NCBI GenBank assembly: GCA_016931965.1
Contig: JAFGDT010000110.1
Coordinates: 40,377-104,376 of the forward strand
Reading direction: 5' to 3'
Length of the DNA: 64,000 bases
DNA from: a bacterium
GTDB taxonomy: Bacteria; Zhuqueibacterota; QNDG01; DSAB01
The position numbers were made by a program, and so were the translations under genes. Shown piece by piece: positions 6,593-38,426 of the stretch (the first letter of the stretch is position 1; each line of letters starts with the position of its first letter). The notes beneath the pieces are model-generated. The model was not told the DNA's origin, searched no databases, and saw nothing but the letters and a program-made list of their open reading frames with translations.

Positions 6593-6958
6593 TTACTCAA
6601 CCAATTGAATGATCCTTTCAACAACACCTTCAATATTATTTATGACATCCAGATTTGAGACCCGAAGAACTTTGAGATTCAATCCCTTTAGGTATGCATC
6701 CCGAATTTCATCGTATTCCAAACCGTCATCTTCGTAATGCTGGCCGCCATCGACTTCGATGACGAGGTTGGCTTCAGGCGCATAGAAATCAACGATGTAA
6801 TTGTCCATTGGGCGTTGGCGGAGGAATTTAACGCCAGCCATTTGCCTCATTCGCAGGTGCTGCCACAATTTAACTTCTGCATCGGTCATTGAACTGCGTA
6901 GTTTTCTGGCGCGGTCTTTCAATTTTGGATTGTATTTTAGAATTGGATTTTTTAGCAT
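6593..6958 (-). CDS. DUF559 (Vsr-like) endonuclease-domain protein
   Basis: The protein reads MLKNPILKYNPKLKDRARKLRSSMTDAEVKLWQHLR...VIEVDGGQHY. The six-frame ORF extends N-terminally into the repeat element, so I trimmed it to ATG 6958. Confidence 0.75.
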   Translation of the reverse strand: MLKNPILKYNPKLKDRARKLRSSMTDAEVKLWQHLRMRQMAGVKFLRQRPMDNYIVDFYAPEANLVIEVDGGQHYEDDGLEYDEIRDAYLKGLNLKVLRVSNLDVINNIEGVVERIIQLVE

Positions 6959-8048: not shown

Positions 8049-8146
8049 GCGCCACATAGAGCCGAAAACCCTGATGATGTCAGGGAAACCGTTTAACGGT
8101 AGTCCAGAATTTCGAGACGTAGGCTTGTCGGGCGCCTTTTTATTTT
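8049..8146 (+). ncRNA. candidate small RNA B (~100 nt)
   Basis: It contains the hairpin CCCTGA-TGATG-TCAGGG (8069-8085) and an ACCG...CGGT hairpin, and ends in GGCGCC plus TTTTTATTTT, which abuts the stop codon of the convergent DUF3800 gene. These could instead be terminator structures of that gene. Confidence 0.25.
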
Positions 8147-32503: not shown

Positions 32504-32983
32504 TTGAATATGGCTTTCAATAAGGATGTCAAAGTGGCTGTTTTGATGGGGAGTCAGTCAGATGAGACTGTCATGCAGCATTGTGTTCAACTGCTTCAAT
32601 ATTTTGGCATTCCCCATGAGGTGCATGTGATGTCCGCACATCGTCATCCAGACAAAGTAACAGTGTTTGCTCAATCCATTGATGAGAAAGATATTCATGT
32701 TGTTATTGCGGGTGCGGGTATGGCTGCACATCTTCCCGGTGTATTGGCTTCCCAGACCACAGTACCGGTCATTGGTGTACCTCTGGAGGGATCCTCTTTG
32801 GGAGGGCAGGATGCGCTTTTTTCCATGGTGCAAATGCCTTCGGGAATTCCTGTGGCCACGATGGCTATCGGAAAAACAGGGGCACAAAATGCGGCTATTT
32901 TGGCCGCAGAGATTTTAGCGCTTCGGGATAATGCATTAAAAAAGAAATTGATCGCATTCAGAAAACAGGGGAGTAAAATATAG
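32504..32983 (+). CDS. purE: 5-(carboxyamino)imidazole ribonucleotide mutase
   Basis: VAVLMGSQSD...VIAGAGMAAHLPGVLASQTTVPVIGVP is the canonical PurE sequence. Confidence 0.9.
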   Translation: MNMAFNKDVKVAVLMGSQSDETVMQHCVQLLQYFGIPHEVHVMSAHRHPDKVTVFAQSIDEKDIHVVIAGAGMAAHLPGVLASQTTVPVIGVPLEGSSLGGQDALFSMVQMPSGIPVATMAIGKTGAQNAAILAAEILALRDNALKKKLIAFRKQGSKI

Positions 32984-33025
32984 GGTGTATTGTTCGTACT
33001 ATAAATATCAATCGAGGAATTTGTC

Positions 33026-35098
33026 ATGAATATAGGTTGGGTAAGTAAAATATTGGAGGATTCACAATACAACCTATTAATCTTTAAATATGAAGAAATA
33101 GAAGCCCTTGAAAAAAGGATTATTGTTAAGAATGATAAGCCCTATGTCAATTGTATTATTCGTGAGAAGGAAGTCCATCTGAAACCCGAGGAAATCGTCC
33201 GTCAGCTTTATACTGCTAAGCTCATCAAAGATTACGGTTATCCCAGAAAACGGATACGATTCGAGCATCCTGTCCAGTTTGGGCGGGAAACAAAATCTGC
33301 AGATATCGTCGTGTTTGACAAAGATAGACCAACCGTTGAATATATTATTGTCGAGGTCAAGAAACCGAAGCTCAAGGATGGCAAGGAACAACTGAGATCA
33401 TATTGTAATGCTACCGGAGCACCCATTGGTGTATGGTCAAACGGAGGGCAGATTTCCCATTATAATCGTAAAGATCCGAATTTTTTCGAGGACATCACCG
33501 ACATCCCTAAAGCAGATCAGACTTTTGAAGACATTCTGAAAGAACGTTTTACGCTGCGCGACTTGATCATTCGCGATAAAATCCCCAATGAAGGCAAATC
33601 TCTTAAGACCATTATTACCGAAATGGAAGATGAGGTTCTCGCAAATGCCGGTGTTGATGTTTTTGAAGAGGTTTTCAAACTTATATTTGCTAAACTATAT
33701 GACGAACAAAAAAGTCAACAGGACAAGAGCGTTATCAATTATTTTCTGCGTAATAAGGAACTGCCGCAGGTATCTGAACGACAAGCTTTTTATAGTGCCA
33801 AAAACAACGATACGTTTGATTCGATCAAGGAAGCGCTGCAAAAAATAGACGATTCCGGTTTCAGAGTTCTTGAATTCCGTAACACCGGCCAATCCGAGGG
33901 CGAGTTAAAGAAGAAGATACAGAAACTTTTTGACGATGCTAAAAATAAATGGCCGGGCGTTTTCCCTGATGAAAGTAAAATTGATCTTTCACCTTCGCAC
34001 CTTTCCGTTTGTATTTCAAGCCTTCAGGATGTCAAACTTTTCAATTCCAATCTGCAGGTTATAGACGAAGCTTTTGAATATCTGGTAAACAAGTCCTCTA
34101 AGGGAGAAAAGGGCCAATATTTCACTCCTCGGCATGTGATCGATATGTGCGTCAAGATGCTTAATCCCAAGCGGGGTGAATATATGATCGACACCGCCGC
34201 CGGTTCCTGTGGATTCACTGTTCATACGATCTTTCACCGTACAGGGCACTTATTTGAAAATACAGAAATTTCTCAGGAAGAAAAAGAGGATGTCCTCAAA
34301 GTTTTCGGCATTGATTTTGATGAAAAGGTCGTGCGTGTGGCTCGGACACTCAACTTGATCGCAGGCGATGGTGAAACAAACATTTTGCATCTTAATACAC
34401 TGGATTATGACCGCTGGGATGAAATCGTTAATAACCCGGATTGGCGGGACACTTACGGAAGTGGTTTTAGACGCTTGGAAGCCCTCAAAAAAGAGACTAA
34501 TGGCCATAAAGAATTTCTCTTTGATATTTTGATGGCCAATCCACCATTTGCAGGGGATATTAAAGAATCCCGCATCATCCATAAATATGAGCTCGGCTAT
34601 AACAAGAAGAACAAGCCAAAGTCAAAGGTCGGCAGGGATATTCTCTTTATCGAACGAAACCTTGATTTCATCAAGCCGGGTGGCAGGATGGCAATCGTAT
34701 TGCCTCAAGGGTGATTCAACAATACATCCGATAAGGACATCCGGGAATTTGTTGCGGGTAAGGCGCGCATTTTGGCAGTTGTCGGCCTGCAGGGCAACAC
34801 CTTTAAACCCCACACAGGCACCAAAACAAGTGTCTTATTCCTGCAAAAATGGGACAAAAAACTTTGCCCAAAGAAAGATGATTATCCTATCTTTTTTGCG
34901 GTATCAGAGAAATCAGGCAAGGATAATTCAGGCGAATACGTCTACGTTAAAAATGGTGAGGGCAAGCCAAAGCTGGATTACTACGGTCATTTTATCGTTG
35001 ATCACGATCTGCACAATCAAGGCGGCGCATTACCGGATGGTATTGCCGAAGCATTCATTGACTGGGCGAAGAAAGAGAAATTGAGCTTTTGGAAATAA
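33026..35098 (+). pseudogene. hsdM: Type I RM methyltransferase subunit HsdM interrupted by an in-frame TGA at 34712-34714
   Basis: It has motif I DTAAGSCGFTV and motif IV ILMANPPFAG. The frame reads ...AIVLPQG*FNNTSDKDIREFVAGKARILAVVGLQGNTF..., so the C-terminal ~128 aa continue in the same frame after the stop. TGA is used as a genuine stop elsewhere, for example at the mutS end. Confidence 0.6.
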
Positions 35099-35101
35099 CA
35101 T

Positions 35102-36529
35102 ATGCAAATATCTTGTGTTAATTACAAGAAATTAGATCAAGGGACACGGCTTGATGCAGAGTATTACAAGCCAGAGTTCTTAGAAGTCGAAAAAATACTA
35201 TGGAAAGCTAACTGTAAACTGTTAGACGATGTGAGCAAGTCGATCAAAAGTTTTGGAGCATATGCATTGTGCAACAAGATGGTTTTAGTTGCTAAAGGGA
35301 TTCCCTTTATACGATGTAAGGATATCAAAAAAGGTTTTGTTGATTTTTCAGAAGTACTTTTCATTGATGAGGCAACACACTGCCTTCTTTCAAAATCAGC
35401 GATTACTCCTAATATCGTTATGCTCACTATGTCTGGGTCAGTAGGTAATTCTGCAATTGCTGATCCAACTTGGAAATATCCAATAAATTCAAATCAAGAC
35501 ATTGCGAAGATAGAAACGGATGATTTAATAAATCCATACTATTTAACTGTTTTTTTCAATACAAAATATGGGAAAAGCCAAACAGAAAGATTGCCCATTG
35601 GTAGTATTCAACAACATATTTTTTTATGGCAGTTGAAAGGACTTCTAATTTTTACACCATCATCCAAATTACAAGGATTAATAGCTGGCATTTATTGCAA
35701 AGTTATTAAATTATTAAAAGATAGCGATTTCTTTTATCAAAAAGCAGAGCAAATCCTACTTTTCGAGCTTGGCCTTCTGAACTGGAAGCCAAAGCGAAGA
35801 CTTTCATTTGTCAAGAATTTCTCCGAAACGCAGACCGGCGGACGCATTGACGCCGAATACTTCCAACCGATGTATGAGGAAATCGTCGACAAGATATCAA
35901 AACGATTTAATGCTAAGCCGATTGGTGAATATAATTTTATCGATGTCACAACAGGACAATATTCGGATAATTATACTGAAAAGTTGTCTGGTTTGCCATA
36001 TATAAGAGGCACAGATTTACTTTCTGGTACTGTGAAAATGGACAATCTTGTTTATATTGCAAAAGAGCACCAAGAAAAAAGCAAGCTTGCGAGAGAAGGC
36101 GATGTTGTTGTCACACGGGTAGGAACTATTGGTTTATCAGCAAGGATTCCAAAAGAATGTGAAGGCGGTACTATTAGTGATAATCTCATTAGACTAAGAA
36201 TTAAAGATGATGGATTGGACACCTATTTTCTTGCTTTATTTCTTGATAGTATCTTGGGCAGAAGTTTAATGATACGATACAGCAGAGGAAGTGTTCAGCA
36301 ACGTTTAAATCAGGAAACTTTAAAGGAAATCATCATCCCGATTTTAGACAGAAATATTCAAGCAAACATTGCTTTGGAAGTTAAAGATTCTCATAAGCTA
36401 AGGGAACAGTCAAGGTGTCTGTTAGACATTGCCAAGCGTGGCGTTGAGATGGCGATCGAGAAGAGTGAAAAAGACGCTCAAAATTGGATCGATGAAGAAT
36501 TGAGGAAGTTAAACTTCCGTGTGGATTAG
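35102..36529 (+). CDS. hsdS: Type I RM specificity subunit HsdS (two TRDs)
   Basis: The 475-aa protein has two target-recognition domains separated by a conserved central region and a C-terminal coiled coil (QNWIDEELRKL). Confidence 0.85.
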   Translation: MQISCVNYKKLDQGTRLDAEYYKPEFLEVEKILWKANCKLLDDVSKSIKSFGAYALCNKMVLVAKGIPFIRCKDIKKGFVDFSEVLFIDEATHCLLSKSAITPNIVMLTMSGSVGNSAIADPTWKYPINSNQDIAKIETDDLINPYYLTVFFNTKYGKSQTERLPIGSIQQHIFLWQLKGLLIFTPSSKLQGLIAGIYCKVIKLLKDSDFFYQKAEQILLFELGLLNWKPKRRLSFVKNFSETQTGGRIDAEYFQPMYEEIVDKISKRFNAKPIGEYNFIDVTTGQYSDNYTEKLSGLPYIRGTDLLSGTVKMDNLVYIAKEHQEKSKLAREGDVVVTRVGTIGLSARIPKECEGGTISDNLIRLRIKDDGLDTYFLALFLDSILGRSLMIRYSRGSVQQRLNQETLKEIIIPILDRNIQANIALEVKDSHKLREQSRCLLDIAKRGVEMAIEKSEKDAQNWIDEELRKLNFRVD

Positions 36530-36540
36530 AGAGGCAATCG

Positions 36541-37590
36541 ATGCCATTTAACCCGAAATATATCATTACCCCGAAGATCAATAAGGCGCTCATTGAGATC
36601 GAGCGGGTGCGGGGATTTCTGGATGCGATAAAGCTTAAGGATGACTGGATTTCCGATATGCAGAAAAAAGCGCTTATCCTTGAGTCGCACCACTCTACGC
36701 ATATTGAAGGTACAGCAATATCACTTTCTCAGGCACAGGATATTTTAGCGGGTAAAAAGGTTAAAGGCATCAGTCGTGACGATGAAAAAGAGCTTTTGAA
36801 TTACAAGAAGGCGATGGGTTTTATCTCAAAATATCTTGGCAAGGATGATCCGGTTTCGGAAGACATTATCCAAGAGCTTCACAGGATTCTGGTTAAAGGC
36901 GTCCGGGGCGAGAATGCAGGTCCGGGCAATTACCGAAAGATACAAAACTACGTCGTCAATTCCCGGACTCGTGAGGTCGTTTATACTCCGCCTCCCGCTT
37001 TAGAGGTCCCACATCTTATGCAAGAGTTTACGGAATGGATTAACAAGGCCGAGGATGTGTCGCCTATCCTTGTTGCCGCTATTGCCCAATTTCAGTTCGT
37101 GCATATTCATCCATTTATTGACGGTAACGGCAGGATGGCCCGGCTTCTTTCAACGCTTATTCTCTATAAGACAGGTTATGATTTTAAGCGGTTATTTACA
37201 ATCTCTGAATACTACGACAAAGACCGCTCAGCGTATTATGACGCTATTCAGTCAGTGCGTAAGAACAAGATGGATATGACCGGATGGCTTGAATATTTTG
37301 TTGATGGACTTCGTTCTCAGATGAAAGAGATACAGAATAAAGGAAAAGAGATCATTAAGAAAGATACAGCTTTGCAGAAAATAAAGAAAGCAGGATTTAA
37401 CGTTCGTCAGGAAAAAGCGATTAAGTTCATTTTACAGAATGGAAAAATAACAGTAAATGATTATCAGGCAGTTGCCTCATGTATTCGCAGGACAGCTCAG
37501 CGGGATTTGGATGATTTGCTTGAAAAGAAGGTCATAAAAGCGGTCGCCAAAAGCCCTACCGATCCGACAAAACATTATGTTTTACTGTGA
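36541..37590 (+). CDS. Fic/DOC family protein (putative AMPylator) with a C-terminal winged-helix domain
   Basis: HPFIDGNGRMARLL is the canonical HPFx[DE]GNGR Fic motif. The gene starts 11 nt after the hsdS stop. Confidence 0.9.
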   Translation: MPFNPKYIITPKINKALIEIERVRGFLDAIKLKDDWISDMQKKALILESHHSTHIEGTAISLSQAQDILAGKKVKGISRDDEKELLNYKKAMGFISKYLGKDDPVSEDIIQELHRILVKGVRGENAGPGNYRKIQNYVVNSRTREVVYTPPPALEVPHLMQEFTEWINKAEDVSPILVAAIAQFQFVHIHPFIDGNGRMARLLSTLILYKTGYDFKRLFTISEYYDKDRSAYYDAIQSVRKNKMDMTGWLEYFVDGLRSQMKEIQNKGKEIIKKDTALQKIKKAGFNVRQEKAIKFILQNGKITVNDYQAVASCIRRTAQRDLDDLLEKKVIKAVAKSPTDPTKHYVLL

Positions 37591-37628
37591 CAAGCTACTG
37601 TGACATACTGTGACATTTTACTGTGACA
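37584..37628 (+). repeat. four direct copies of ACTGTGACA at 10-13 bp spacing
   Basis: Copies lie at 37584-37592, 37597-37605, 37607-37615 and 37620-37628. The first overlaps the Fic stop codon and the fourth begins the hsdS stub. Confidence 0.8.
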
Positions 37629-37671
37629 AGGCGAAGAACCTAAAAACTGGATTGATGAGGAATTAAAATAA
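37622..37671 (+). pseudogene. orphan duplicate of the hsdS 3' terminus
   Basis: ...GAACCTAAAAACTGGATTGATGAGGAATTAAAATAA reads EPKNWIDEELK*. The real hsdS end (36470-36531) reads DAQNWIDEELRKLNFRVD*. Confidence 0.6.
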
Positions 37672-37697
37672 TTAGGAATTAAACAACTATCAACTGT

Positions 37698-38426
37698 ATG
37701 AATAACAATACCAAAATCCTGGTCATCATTCCAACTTATGATGAGGTGGAAAATATTCAGAAACTGATTCCCCTGGTTCTGGTTCAGGATCCACGTATTG
37801 GTGTACTGGTCATTGATGACGGTTCACCCGACGGTACGGCAGAGCAGGTTGAGAAGATGATGGCTAAAACAGATCATCGGTTGCATCTCATCAAACGTCC
37901 CCGTAAGATGGGTTTGGGAACGGCTTATGTGGATGGATTTAAGTATGCATTGAAAGAGCGGTATGATCTTATCTTCGAAATGGATGCCGATTTTTCCCAC
38001 GATCCAGATGCCATCCCCGAATTTTTAAAAACCATCGAAGATTACGATCTGGTGGTGGGTAGTCGATATATTCGGGGCGTCAATGTGATTAACTGGCCGA
38101 TGTCTCGTCTAATTCTTTCCTGGTTAGCGAATTTTTATACACGTGTGGTGACGGGACTTCCCCTTAAAGATGCTACCAGCGGATATAAGTGTTTTAAAAG
38201 AAATGTACTGGAGGCGATTGATCTGGATAATGTCCATTCGGATGGGTATGCATTTCAAATCGAGATCGACTTTAAAGTGTGGCAGAAAGGATTCCGTCTG
38301 AAAGAAATTCCCATCGTTTTTATCGATCGATATATCGGCATTTCTAAAATGAATCGCAAGATTATCCGGGAAGCCGTGTGGATGGTGTGGAAACTGCGCT
38401 TGTTGAGTCTATTTGGAAAATTATAA
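37698..38426 (+). CDS. GT2 polyprenol-phosphate mannose/glucose synthase (Dpm1/PpmS-like)
   Basis: It contains IIPTYDEVENI, VIDDGSPDGT, a DAD motif and GSRYI, the typical Dpm1-like GT2 motifs. Confidence 0.8.
   Translation: MNNNTKILVIIPTYDEVENIQKLIPLVLVQDPRIGVLVIDDGSPDGTAEQVEKMMAKTDHRLHLIKRPRKMGLGTAYVDGFKYALKERYDLIFEMDADFSHDPDAIPEFLKTIEDYDLVVGSRYIRGVNVINWPMSRLILSWLANFYTRVVTGLPLKDATSGYKCFKRNVLEAIDLDNVHSDGYAFQIEIDFKVWQKGFRLKEIPIVFIDRYIGISKMNRKIIREAVWMVWKLRLLSLFGKL

Follow-up and report, generated by a model that had tools for sequence, protein, structure and literature searches.

Rhs loci reportedly undergo 'C-terminal displacement', and Jackson is said to have proposed in 2009 that homology-facilitated illegitimate recombination (HFIR) brings it about. 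HFIR has likewise been proposed for the sequential displacement arrays found at effector-immunity loci of type VI secretion (T6SS) (Kirchberger 2017, PMC5361080). In Rhs, CDI (contact-dependent growth inhibition) and T6SS arrays, an incoming module pairs with the conserved part of the resident gene, brings non-homologous cargo with it and pushes the old 3' part downstream as an orphan, and repeated events put the newest module nearest the gene. Here, we compare with these systems a restriction-modification (RM) locus in a stretch of 64,000 nt from a bacterium of the Zhuqueibacterota (GenBank assembly GCA_016931965.1, contig JAFGDT010000110.1, positions 40,377 to 104,376), the whole of which is referred to below as the window. 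The locus holds a full-length hsdS specificity gene, a fic gene and an orphan piece of an hsdS 3' end (the stub), an order that had been noticed in an earlier sequence-only reading and that is real, with both hsdS and the stub on the forward strand. The stub is a genuine, non-functional scar of recombination at an RM specificity gene's conserved 3' end, and it is probably the displaced end of an older hsdS allele, left behind when the fic module arrived with an hsdS end of its own.

Two other kinds of system have to be considered. Nobusato is said to have described insertion with long target duplication of RM genes in 2000. Such insertions were treated at length for RM genes by Furuta, Abe & Kobayashi (2010, PMC2853133), where the mechanism was not established; as in the window, a defence-related insert without mobility genes is accompanied by direct repeats of more than 30 bp, which often overlap the 3' end of a neighbouring gene. 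In those cases, however, the insert is an RM system and the repeats are near-identical, with a one-copy empty site, whereas here one accessory gene forms the insert, within an RM locus, the repeats are about 61–81% identical and the left copy came with the insert. Defence genes can also be embedded in other systems, PrrC in EcoprrI being an example. Embedding of this sort has been catalogued for Type I RM, BREX, DISARM and Hma systems (Payne et al. 2024, bioRxiv 10.1101/2024.01.29.577857), and the window is alike in that its accessory defence genes share the orientation of the RM operon and lie within it or at its end; two of the families met below, HEC-09 and PDC-M04A, come from that catalogue. 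The catalogue offers no recombination mechanism (its idea is that of a 'genomic sink') and reports no stubs, and fic is here appended behind hsdS rather than placed between the genes of a system.

The features at the fic-bearing end of the locus are the following.

35102-36529, forward strand: hsdS-like specificity gene with two target recognition domains (TRDs), full length (Pfam Methylase_S; PADLOC Specificity_I and mad5; 120 homologs)
36404-36540, forward strand: left arm, made up of the hsdS 3' conserved region, the tail (..ELRKLNFRVD, stop) and the TAGAGAGG ribosome-binding site (RBS) spacer, delimited by homology to fic-linked loci
36541-37590, forward strand: fic, 11 nt behind hsdS (Pfam Fic and Fic_N)
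37580-37630, forward strand: 3' repeat array of four ACTGTGACA copies at 37584, 37597, 37607 and 37620 (spacing 13-10-13)
37633-37701, forward strand: orphan hsdS 3' stub (tblastn, score test and family consensus; core homology at 37633-37683, with 37684-37701 assigned from the open frame only)
from 37698, forward strand: family 2 glycosyltransferase (GT2) gene, separated from fic by a 107-nt spacer

The stub lies on the same strand as hsdS, inside the 107-nt spacer right behind the cassette, and begins 1–4 nt past the end of the repeat array. When the last 60 residues of HsdS were compared with the whole window by tblastn, it was the best non-self match (E = 0.031, 17 aa, 37633-37683), and an ungapped BLOSUM62 scan in six frames gave it a score of 48, the highest of any non-self match, the next being 40, 40 and 36. 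The maxima of 30 whole-window shuffles lay between 32 and 44, all below the 48 of the stub, so the similarity stands up against what AT-rich sequence yields by chance. Together, the top score, the right strand and the location in a 107-nt spacer make a chance match very unlikely. In the frame of fic, the stub reads (Q)GEEPKNWIDEELK, a stop, LGIKQLSTV and a second stop; the first stop is a TAA at 37669-37671 in the place of a Lys codon, and the second, a TGA, overlaps the ATG of GT2. The tblastn alignment crosses the TAA (KDAQNWIDEELRKLNFR against EEPKNWIDEELK, stop, LGIK), and HsdS C-termini (120 homologs) end in ...LLDIAKRGVEMAIEKxEKxAQxWIxxELKKLG(V/I)K... before their stop. With Lys in place of the TAA, the stub (...NWIDEELK, stop, LGIK...) matches the family consensus ELKKLG(V/I)K, where hsdS of the window itself has ELRKLNFR. 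The bounds of 37622-37671 first given to the stub were slightly loose, since GAACCT starts at 37636, and the view that it does not extend downstream did not hold, with similarity running past the TAA and the open frame reaching the GT2 start. Its length is thus put at about 51–69 nt, including a nonsense codon. A hidden Markov model (HMM) of the HsdS C-terminus, run over all loci fetched from other genomes (designated L001 and so on), picked up the true ends as well as the stubs that lie upstream in L001 and L038, scored the window stub at just 0.9 bits with the stop codon masked as X, and returned no downstream stub in these loci besides that of the window.

Comparison at the nucleotide level bears on where the stub came from. 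Its similarity to the true hsdS end of the window is real and modest, at 61% identity over 51 nt (counted by hand) and 81% over the best 31 nt (25/31), and within the NWIDEEL core the two differ at 4 nt, all of them synonymous third positions. Against the 3' ends of eleven other family members, the identity is 69–88% over 20–50 nt (L164, 36/50; L170, 34/46; L174, 31/41). The fic-linked hsdS genes all end in L-[NGS]-[FVI]-[RC]-[VLF]-[DNY] and a stop, after which come a TAG(A/C)GAGG spacer and the ATG of fic; the LGIK... tail of the stub resembles that of the fic-less allele L164 (LGVKL, stop). Because it is about equally similar (70–80% nt identity) to every family allele and no closer to its own neighbour than to the others, the stub appears to derive from another, earlier allele, and not, as had been supposed, from duplication of the present hsdS end.

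The present hsdS end, for its part, belongs with fic. Homology of the left arm to fic-linked loci (L017, L001, L041, L038, L174 and L163) starts at 36404-36487 and continues into fic; homology to fic-less alleles (L161, L164, L170 and L176) ends at 36489-36507, ahead of the tail, and the tails of these alleles differ. The hsdS tail with its 11-nt RBS spacer is common only to fic-linked loci (the window, L017, L163 and L174), and in L001, L041 and L038 a bare hsdS 3' fragment stands before fic in non-RM contexts with no hsdS gene. Among these fic loci from other phyla, L017 belongs to Thermodesulfobacteriota, L001 to Syntrophaceae, L041 to Omnitrophota and L038 to Spirochaetes. On the right, nucleotide homology to L017, L001, L041, L038 and L174 breaks off in every case at 37628/9, which is the final base of repeat 4. 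The constant right end and the variable left start indicate a moving unit that comprises the hsdS 3' conserved region, the tail, the RBS, fic and the repeat array and whose right edge is sharp while its left edge is ragged. The fic cassette is therefore not an insert between two copies of one hsdS end, as first read, but a unit that brings its own hsdS 3' end and is cut off sharply at the array. In L024, L025 and L050, a Type IIG-type stub (...VYKLYGLxDEEIxIIEGEK, stop, ATG) stands directly in front of fic, which implies that RM 3' fragments travel with cargo in more than one RM family. In L012, L013 and L016, a leader about 60–110 nt upstream of fic encodes a short piece, M..LKSVESQNVEFKSK.., which we take to resemble the 5' end of an AlbA_2-type ATP-binding regulator; if so, this leader would be the 5' stub of yet another gene class.

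The stub also marks the border of a larger insertion, whose remaining features are these.

32504-32983: purE, left neighbour of the RM/defence island
32984-37697, forward strand: the whole RM/defence island between purE and GT2 (synteny with L081; lower GC, reversed AT skew)
33026-35098, forward strand: RM-A, fused nuclease-methylase subunit (Pfam HSDR_N_2 and N6_Mtase)

L081, the closest syntenic relative (from a metagenome collection), has the order DUF4837, purE, GT2, GT2b and accA with a purE-GT2 distance of 28 nt, and its five genes show 59–76% aa identity to those of the window. The base composition of 32984-37697 is distinct, with lower GC and a reversed AT skew. Since purE and GT2 are adjacent in L081, 32984-37697 is an inserted island and the stub is the last element at its right border. 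RM-A is 88% identical in nucleotide sequence to L170 over 33167-35101, and L170 carries DUF3800, not fic, behind hsdS, whereas the hsdS 3' conserved region and fic show 75–80% nt identity to all relatives; the locus is thus a mosaic. Homologs of RM-A at 78–90% aa identity and of Fic at 75–83% occur across many bacterial phyla, including the Candidate Phyla Radiation (CPR), which on these identities indicates that the RM/fic module spread horizontally, very recently and very widely.

Observed are the stub and the island, the sharpness of the right edge, a left arm that travels with fic and a divergence like that between alleles; the following order of events and an HFIR-type mechanism are what we infer. 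An earlier island of RM-A and hsdS would have ended in a stub-type hsdS tail directly before GT2. An incoming segment, consisting of the hsdS 3' conserved region, tail, RBS, SoFic-like fic and four ACTGTGACA copies, would then have recombined into this resident RM locus. On the left, pairing would have been homologous, within hsdS or RM-A, so that the hsdS now at work has its end from the incoming segment, namely the fic-linked tail. On the right, where there was no homology, the end of the array (...GTGACAAG) would have been joined illegitimately to the old hsdS about 70 nt (about 23 codons) before its stop; microhomology of 3–6 nt, GA(C/G)AAG or AAG, is possible at this joint, where the family sequence presumably reads ...ATC GAG AAG.... 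The old tail would have been left behind and later have acquired the change from AAA to TAA.

Several points weigh against this history. In the collections searched, in which the lineage is poorly sampled and close relatives are lacking, no genome was found with the pre-insertion state, i.e., an hsdS ending in ...EEPKNWIDEELKKLGIKQLSTV and a stop beside GT2 without fic. The best relative of GT2 in the metagenomes is just 69% identical, and the search gave an empty site for the whole island (L081) and no fic-less hsdS at the locus; comparison with fic-less hsdS genes elsewhere did yield alleles with other tails, and other cargo (DUF3800, YhcG) was seen, each time with no stub. Five cargo-bearing loci of the RM family have no stub, namely L017, L163 and L174 (fic), L170 (DUF3800) and L176, where YhcG lies between RM-A and hsdS, so either displacement is not the usual route or stubs are quickly lost. 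More generally, the contexts of the closest HsdS and RM-A homologs hold fic, DUF3800, YhcG or no cargo, and no stubs. The stub is short, and both its assignment to an allele and the microhomology at the junction rest on few sites. The event may also have taken place in an earlier host, with the island arriving complete, stub included. Recombination at the conserved RM 3' end nonetheless remains the best explanation of the locus, but the broader suggestion that RM 3' termini are generally targeted in this organism is not supported: the five loci above lack stubs, and the same fic cassette has many non-RM genes as neighbours elsewhere, where repeats of the local sequence often flank it. The recurrent element is a recombination in which a conserved gene end is used or carried along.

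A second island in the window offers a parallel to the displaced hsdS end.

10276-13200, reverse strand: Type IIG RM gene (Eco57I and TaqI_C domains)
10270-9989, 8954-8883, 7957-7862 and 7192-7082, reverse strand: four orphan copies of the RM C-terminus (..LVYELYGLTEEEIKIVEGSV, stop; tblastn of the RM C-terminus)

The likeness between the two islands had been pointed out before, and it is stronger than was claimed, given four orphan copies of the C-terminus. These stubs lie 70, 17, 110 and 12 nt upstream of DUF3800, DUF3800 (PADLOC PDC-M04A), NYN (HEC-09) and DUF559, respectively. Their placement 12–110 nt ahead of cargo is as sequential displacement predicts, with each stub once the real end of the gene and the newest module nearest the RM gene, and the four stubs resemble in this the repeated events of Rhs, CDI and T6SS arrays. 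The stub at 10270-9989 abuts the stop of the RM gene directly, with no cargo in between. The window shares with the toxin arrays orphan 3' copies in the orientation of the parent gene, an orphan that represents a different allele and an incoming module with a conserved anchor. It differs from them in that the anchor is an RM gene and in that only the conserved extreme 3' end was displaced, not a variable toxin tip together with the gene for its immunity protein. The cargo, moreover, consists of independent defence genes (SoFic-like Fic, DUF3800/PDC-M04A and NYN/HEC-09), and there is no evident selective reason for the stubs to be retained.

An alternative possibility, unlikely although it fares best among the competing accounts, is that a unit of RBS, fic and repeats entered the last ~70 nt of a single hsdS by insertion with long target duplication and that both copies of the target then diverged in place. 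Such events are documented for RM genes (PMC2853133), and the fic cassettes of other genomes lend the idea some weight. Direct repeats of local sequence occur within 700 nt on both sides of the cassette at 20/59 loci, in many phyla, compared with 5/236 shifted pseudo-cassettes; they measure 27–260 nt and are 79–100% identical (for example, in L012, L052, L073, L025 and L051). In L012, a gene of 907 aa is followed by fic and then by a 260-nt copy of the 3' end of the 907-aa gene (6605-6864 and 8105-8364), at 86% nt identity and 84% aa identity over 92 residues; the C-terminus of this gene resembles, by eye, that of a Type III restriction subunit. The flanks downstream of fic are unrelated between loci, while those upstream form a few 'left-arm' classes. 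The repeats around fic cassettes look like the pattern of insertion with long target duplication. Beside the same RM family, L170 holds a 147-nt copy (89% identity) of the trmI 5' end, then a small NTP_transf_2 nucleotidyltransferase cassette and then the full trmI (10435-10581 and 11135-11281). This is another long target duplication, around a different small cassette, and it too speaks for the account. At the window locus, direct repeats alignable over 51 nt, and so longer than 30 bp, do accompany an insert without a mobility gene, but they are not near-identical, and no single-copy empty site for fic was found at the locus. At 61% identity over 51 nt, the two copies in the window have diverged much further than those at the loci just described. 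The left copy has orthologues (about 75–80% nt identity) in the hsdS ends that are linked to fic in genomes without a right copy, the stub resembles foreign alleles no less than the neighbouring hsdS, and the differences in NWIDEEL are all synonymous, as between alleles under selection and not as in a decaying duplicate. These points favour the displaced older allele over duplication in place.

The array behind fic raises the further question of whether the cassette moves by itself. The first ACTGTGACA copy overlaps the fic stop codon, and the four copies are the only ones in the window, against 0.38 expected. Among genome loci, 59/80 have three to four exact copies of a 7-mer within 102 nt at the fic 3' end, compared with 38/1596 random control segments. 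The close clade has ACTGTGACA four times, with the 13-10-13 spacing in 23/44 loci, and both sequence and spacing are conserved across phyla. Other Fic subclades carry arrays of TATAGGACA, TTAAGGGACA, AATTGCACGCA or ACTTGCGACA, 9-10-mers located at or overlapping the fic stop. Two array types are stacked behind one fic in L017, L027, L034, L045, L163 and L026 (e.g., ACTGTGACA followed by TTAAGGGACA, or GGTTGATGATTA three times); the stacked arrays may be what remains of earlier fic cassettes, or a second protein may use them as sites. No significant fold (z = +1.0) was obtained for the 3' element, which consists of 9-mers in direct array.

The Fic protein itself is of class II, with the motif HPFIDGNGR and the inhibitory motif STHIEG both read in its translation. 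It matches the PADLOC SoFic model (E = 3.5e-69, residues 12-335), and its best matches among Protein Data Bank (PDB) entries are CccR (7XUX) and CbFic2 (8CIL). The alignment to 8CIL pairs query residues 145-338 with chain residues 163-361 and takes in the helix-turn-helix (HTH) domain of 8CIL (304-362); by this homology, Fic carries a predicted C-terminal region related to a winged HTH (wHTH). The Fic motif, the inhibitory motif, this C-terminal region and the PADLOC match make it like SoFic, CccR and CbFic2. It differs from SoFic in scoring 93.7 bits, under the cut-off of 550, with the NCBIfam SoFic equivalog, and its anti-phage activity is putative. Homologs at 75–83% aa identity occur in more than 10 phyla, including Omnitrophota, Zixibacteria, Planctomycetia, Uhrbacteria, Nitrospira, Elusimicrobia and Atribacteria. 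At 64 loci, the genes upstream of fic are diverse, with six ResIII and two HsdR alongside transposases, toxins, gyrA, recA and icd, and a constant link between fic and RM systems was rejected for this diversity. Related wHTH-Fic proteins bind specific DNA (PMC9755527), and CccR and CbFic2 are both of this DNA-binding type. In the known members, the sites are inverted repeats in the gene's own promoter, whereas fic of the window has a direct-repeat array at its 3' end. The array repeats may be candidate binding sites for the Fic wHTH domain. Covariation between the Fic C-terminal tail and the repeat type was discounted in part as evidence of binding, because the reading frame runs into the first repeat or repeats and the array thus encodes the tail.

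It is improbable that fic and its four 9-bp direct repeats constitute a previously unrecognised mobile gene cassette whose right end is the array, with the Fic wHTH or some host factor bound to it, and which carries a ragged upstream piece, makes long target duplications of variable length and has left the hsdS stub as one footprint among others. Slightly less probable still is the version in which the array is a recombination or end site, bound by the Fic wHTH or a trans-acting enzyme, and the stub marks the cut in the old hsdS. In favour of such a unit are a sharp right edge that every comparison places at the array, unlike the ragged left, the conservation of array sequence and 13-10-13 spacing across phyla, the strong enrichment of flanking repeats and the specific DNA binding of related wHTH-Fic proteins (PMC9755527). 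The unit, however, contains no recombinase, transposase or nuclease domain, its left end has no matching site, and the fixed position of the right edge could simply come from selection that preserves a regulatory site. Nor are Fido-domain proteins known to process DNA.

That the stub was kept for a function, either as a homology arm for loss or exchange of fic or as upstream context for GT2 expression, is very doubtful. It does abut the start of GT2, with overlapping TGA and ATG, and direct repeats permit excision in principle. Nevertheless, it contains a nonsense codon, its identical runs with the true end are shorter than 8 nt and hence too short for RecA recombination, and no other locus of the family keeps such a stub. 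In the fic-GT2 spacer, neither a promoter or terminator nor a structured RNA or known RNA family was found. That an AT-rich spacer produced the similarity by chance is scarcely credible: the match is short, with 0.9 HMM bits when the stop is read as X and a whole-window tblastn E of 0.031, but it tops all non-self scores and all 30 shuffles, has the right strand and position, agrees with the family consensus beyond the stop and aligns at 70–80% nt identity with eleven independent family 3' ends.

Three site-specific systems were also tried and rejected. A phase-variable hsdS shufflon does not fit a stub that is direct and without a TRD, and no recombinase was found in 32984-37697 in the list of open reading frames (ORFs) or by Pfam scan. 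An integrase-mediated island of the tRNA or icd type was set aside as there is no integrase and the flanking repeats differ from locus to locus; Pfam and PADLOC found no integrase or transposase in the fic insert. An integron gene cassette, with its attC inverted repeat and IntI, was rejected in view of the direct 9-mer array and, again, the absent integrase.

Two observations concern the island as a whole. RM-A is interrupted by an in-frame TGA at 34712-34714, which stands where 4 homologs keep a conserved Arg (PQG[R]FNN), and by this reading RM-A is probably a recent pseudogene, unless the codon is an assembly error. An alternative genetic code for the in-frame TGAs in RM-A and after fic was rejected, as TGA terminates 12/43 long ORFs and replaces a conserved Arg in RM-A. 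The motif ACTAT(A/C)AA lies near both borders of the island (33000-33010 and 37686-37693), and ACTAT also occurs between purE and GT2 in L081; the motif could have arisen as a small target duplication when the island as a whole went in, but chance is likely for an AT-rich 5-8-mer.

Events of this kind are known from toxin loci and, more loosely, from RM mobility; their occurrence at RM 3' ends with defence cargo, twice in one window, is new. Taken together, the hsdS stub, the four Type IIG stubs and the RM 3' fragments that precede fic in other genomes point to a concrete, testable route by which accessory defence genes enter RM systems, in which a cargo gene moves with a conserved RM 3' end as its recombination anchor and the old end is left as a datable scar. 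From such scars, one could work out in what order the parts of defence islands came together. The 3' array and the excess of flanking repeats around SoFic-like genes provide new leads on how, and perhaps why, this widely transferred gene moves, and in this respect the fic cassette itself, with its conserved 3' array and flanking duplications, is a more novel lead than the stub.

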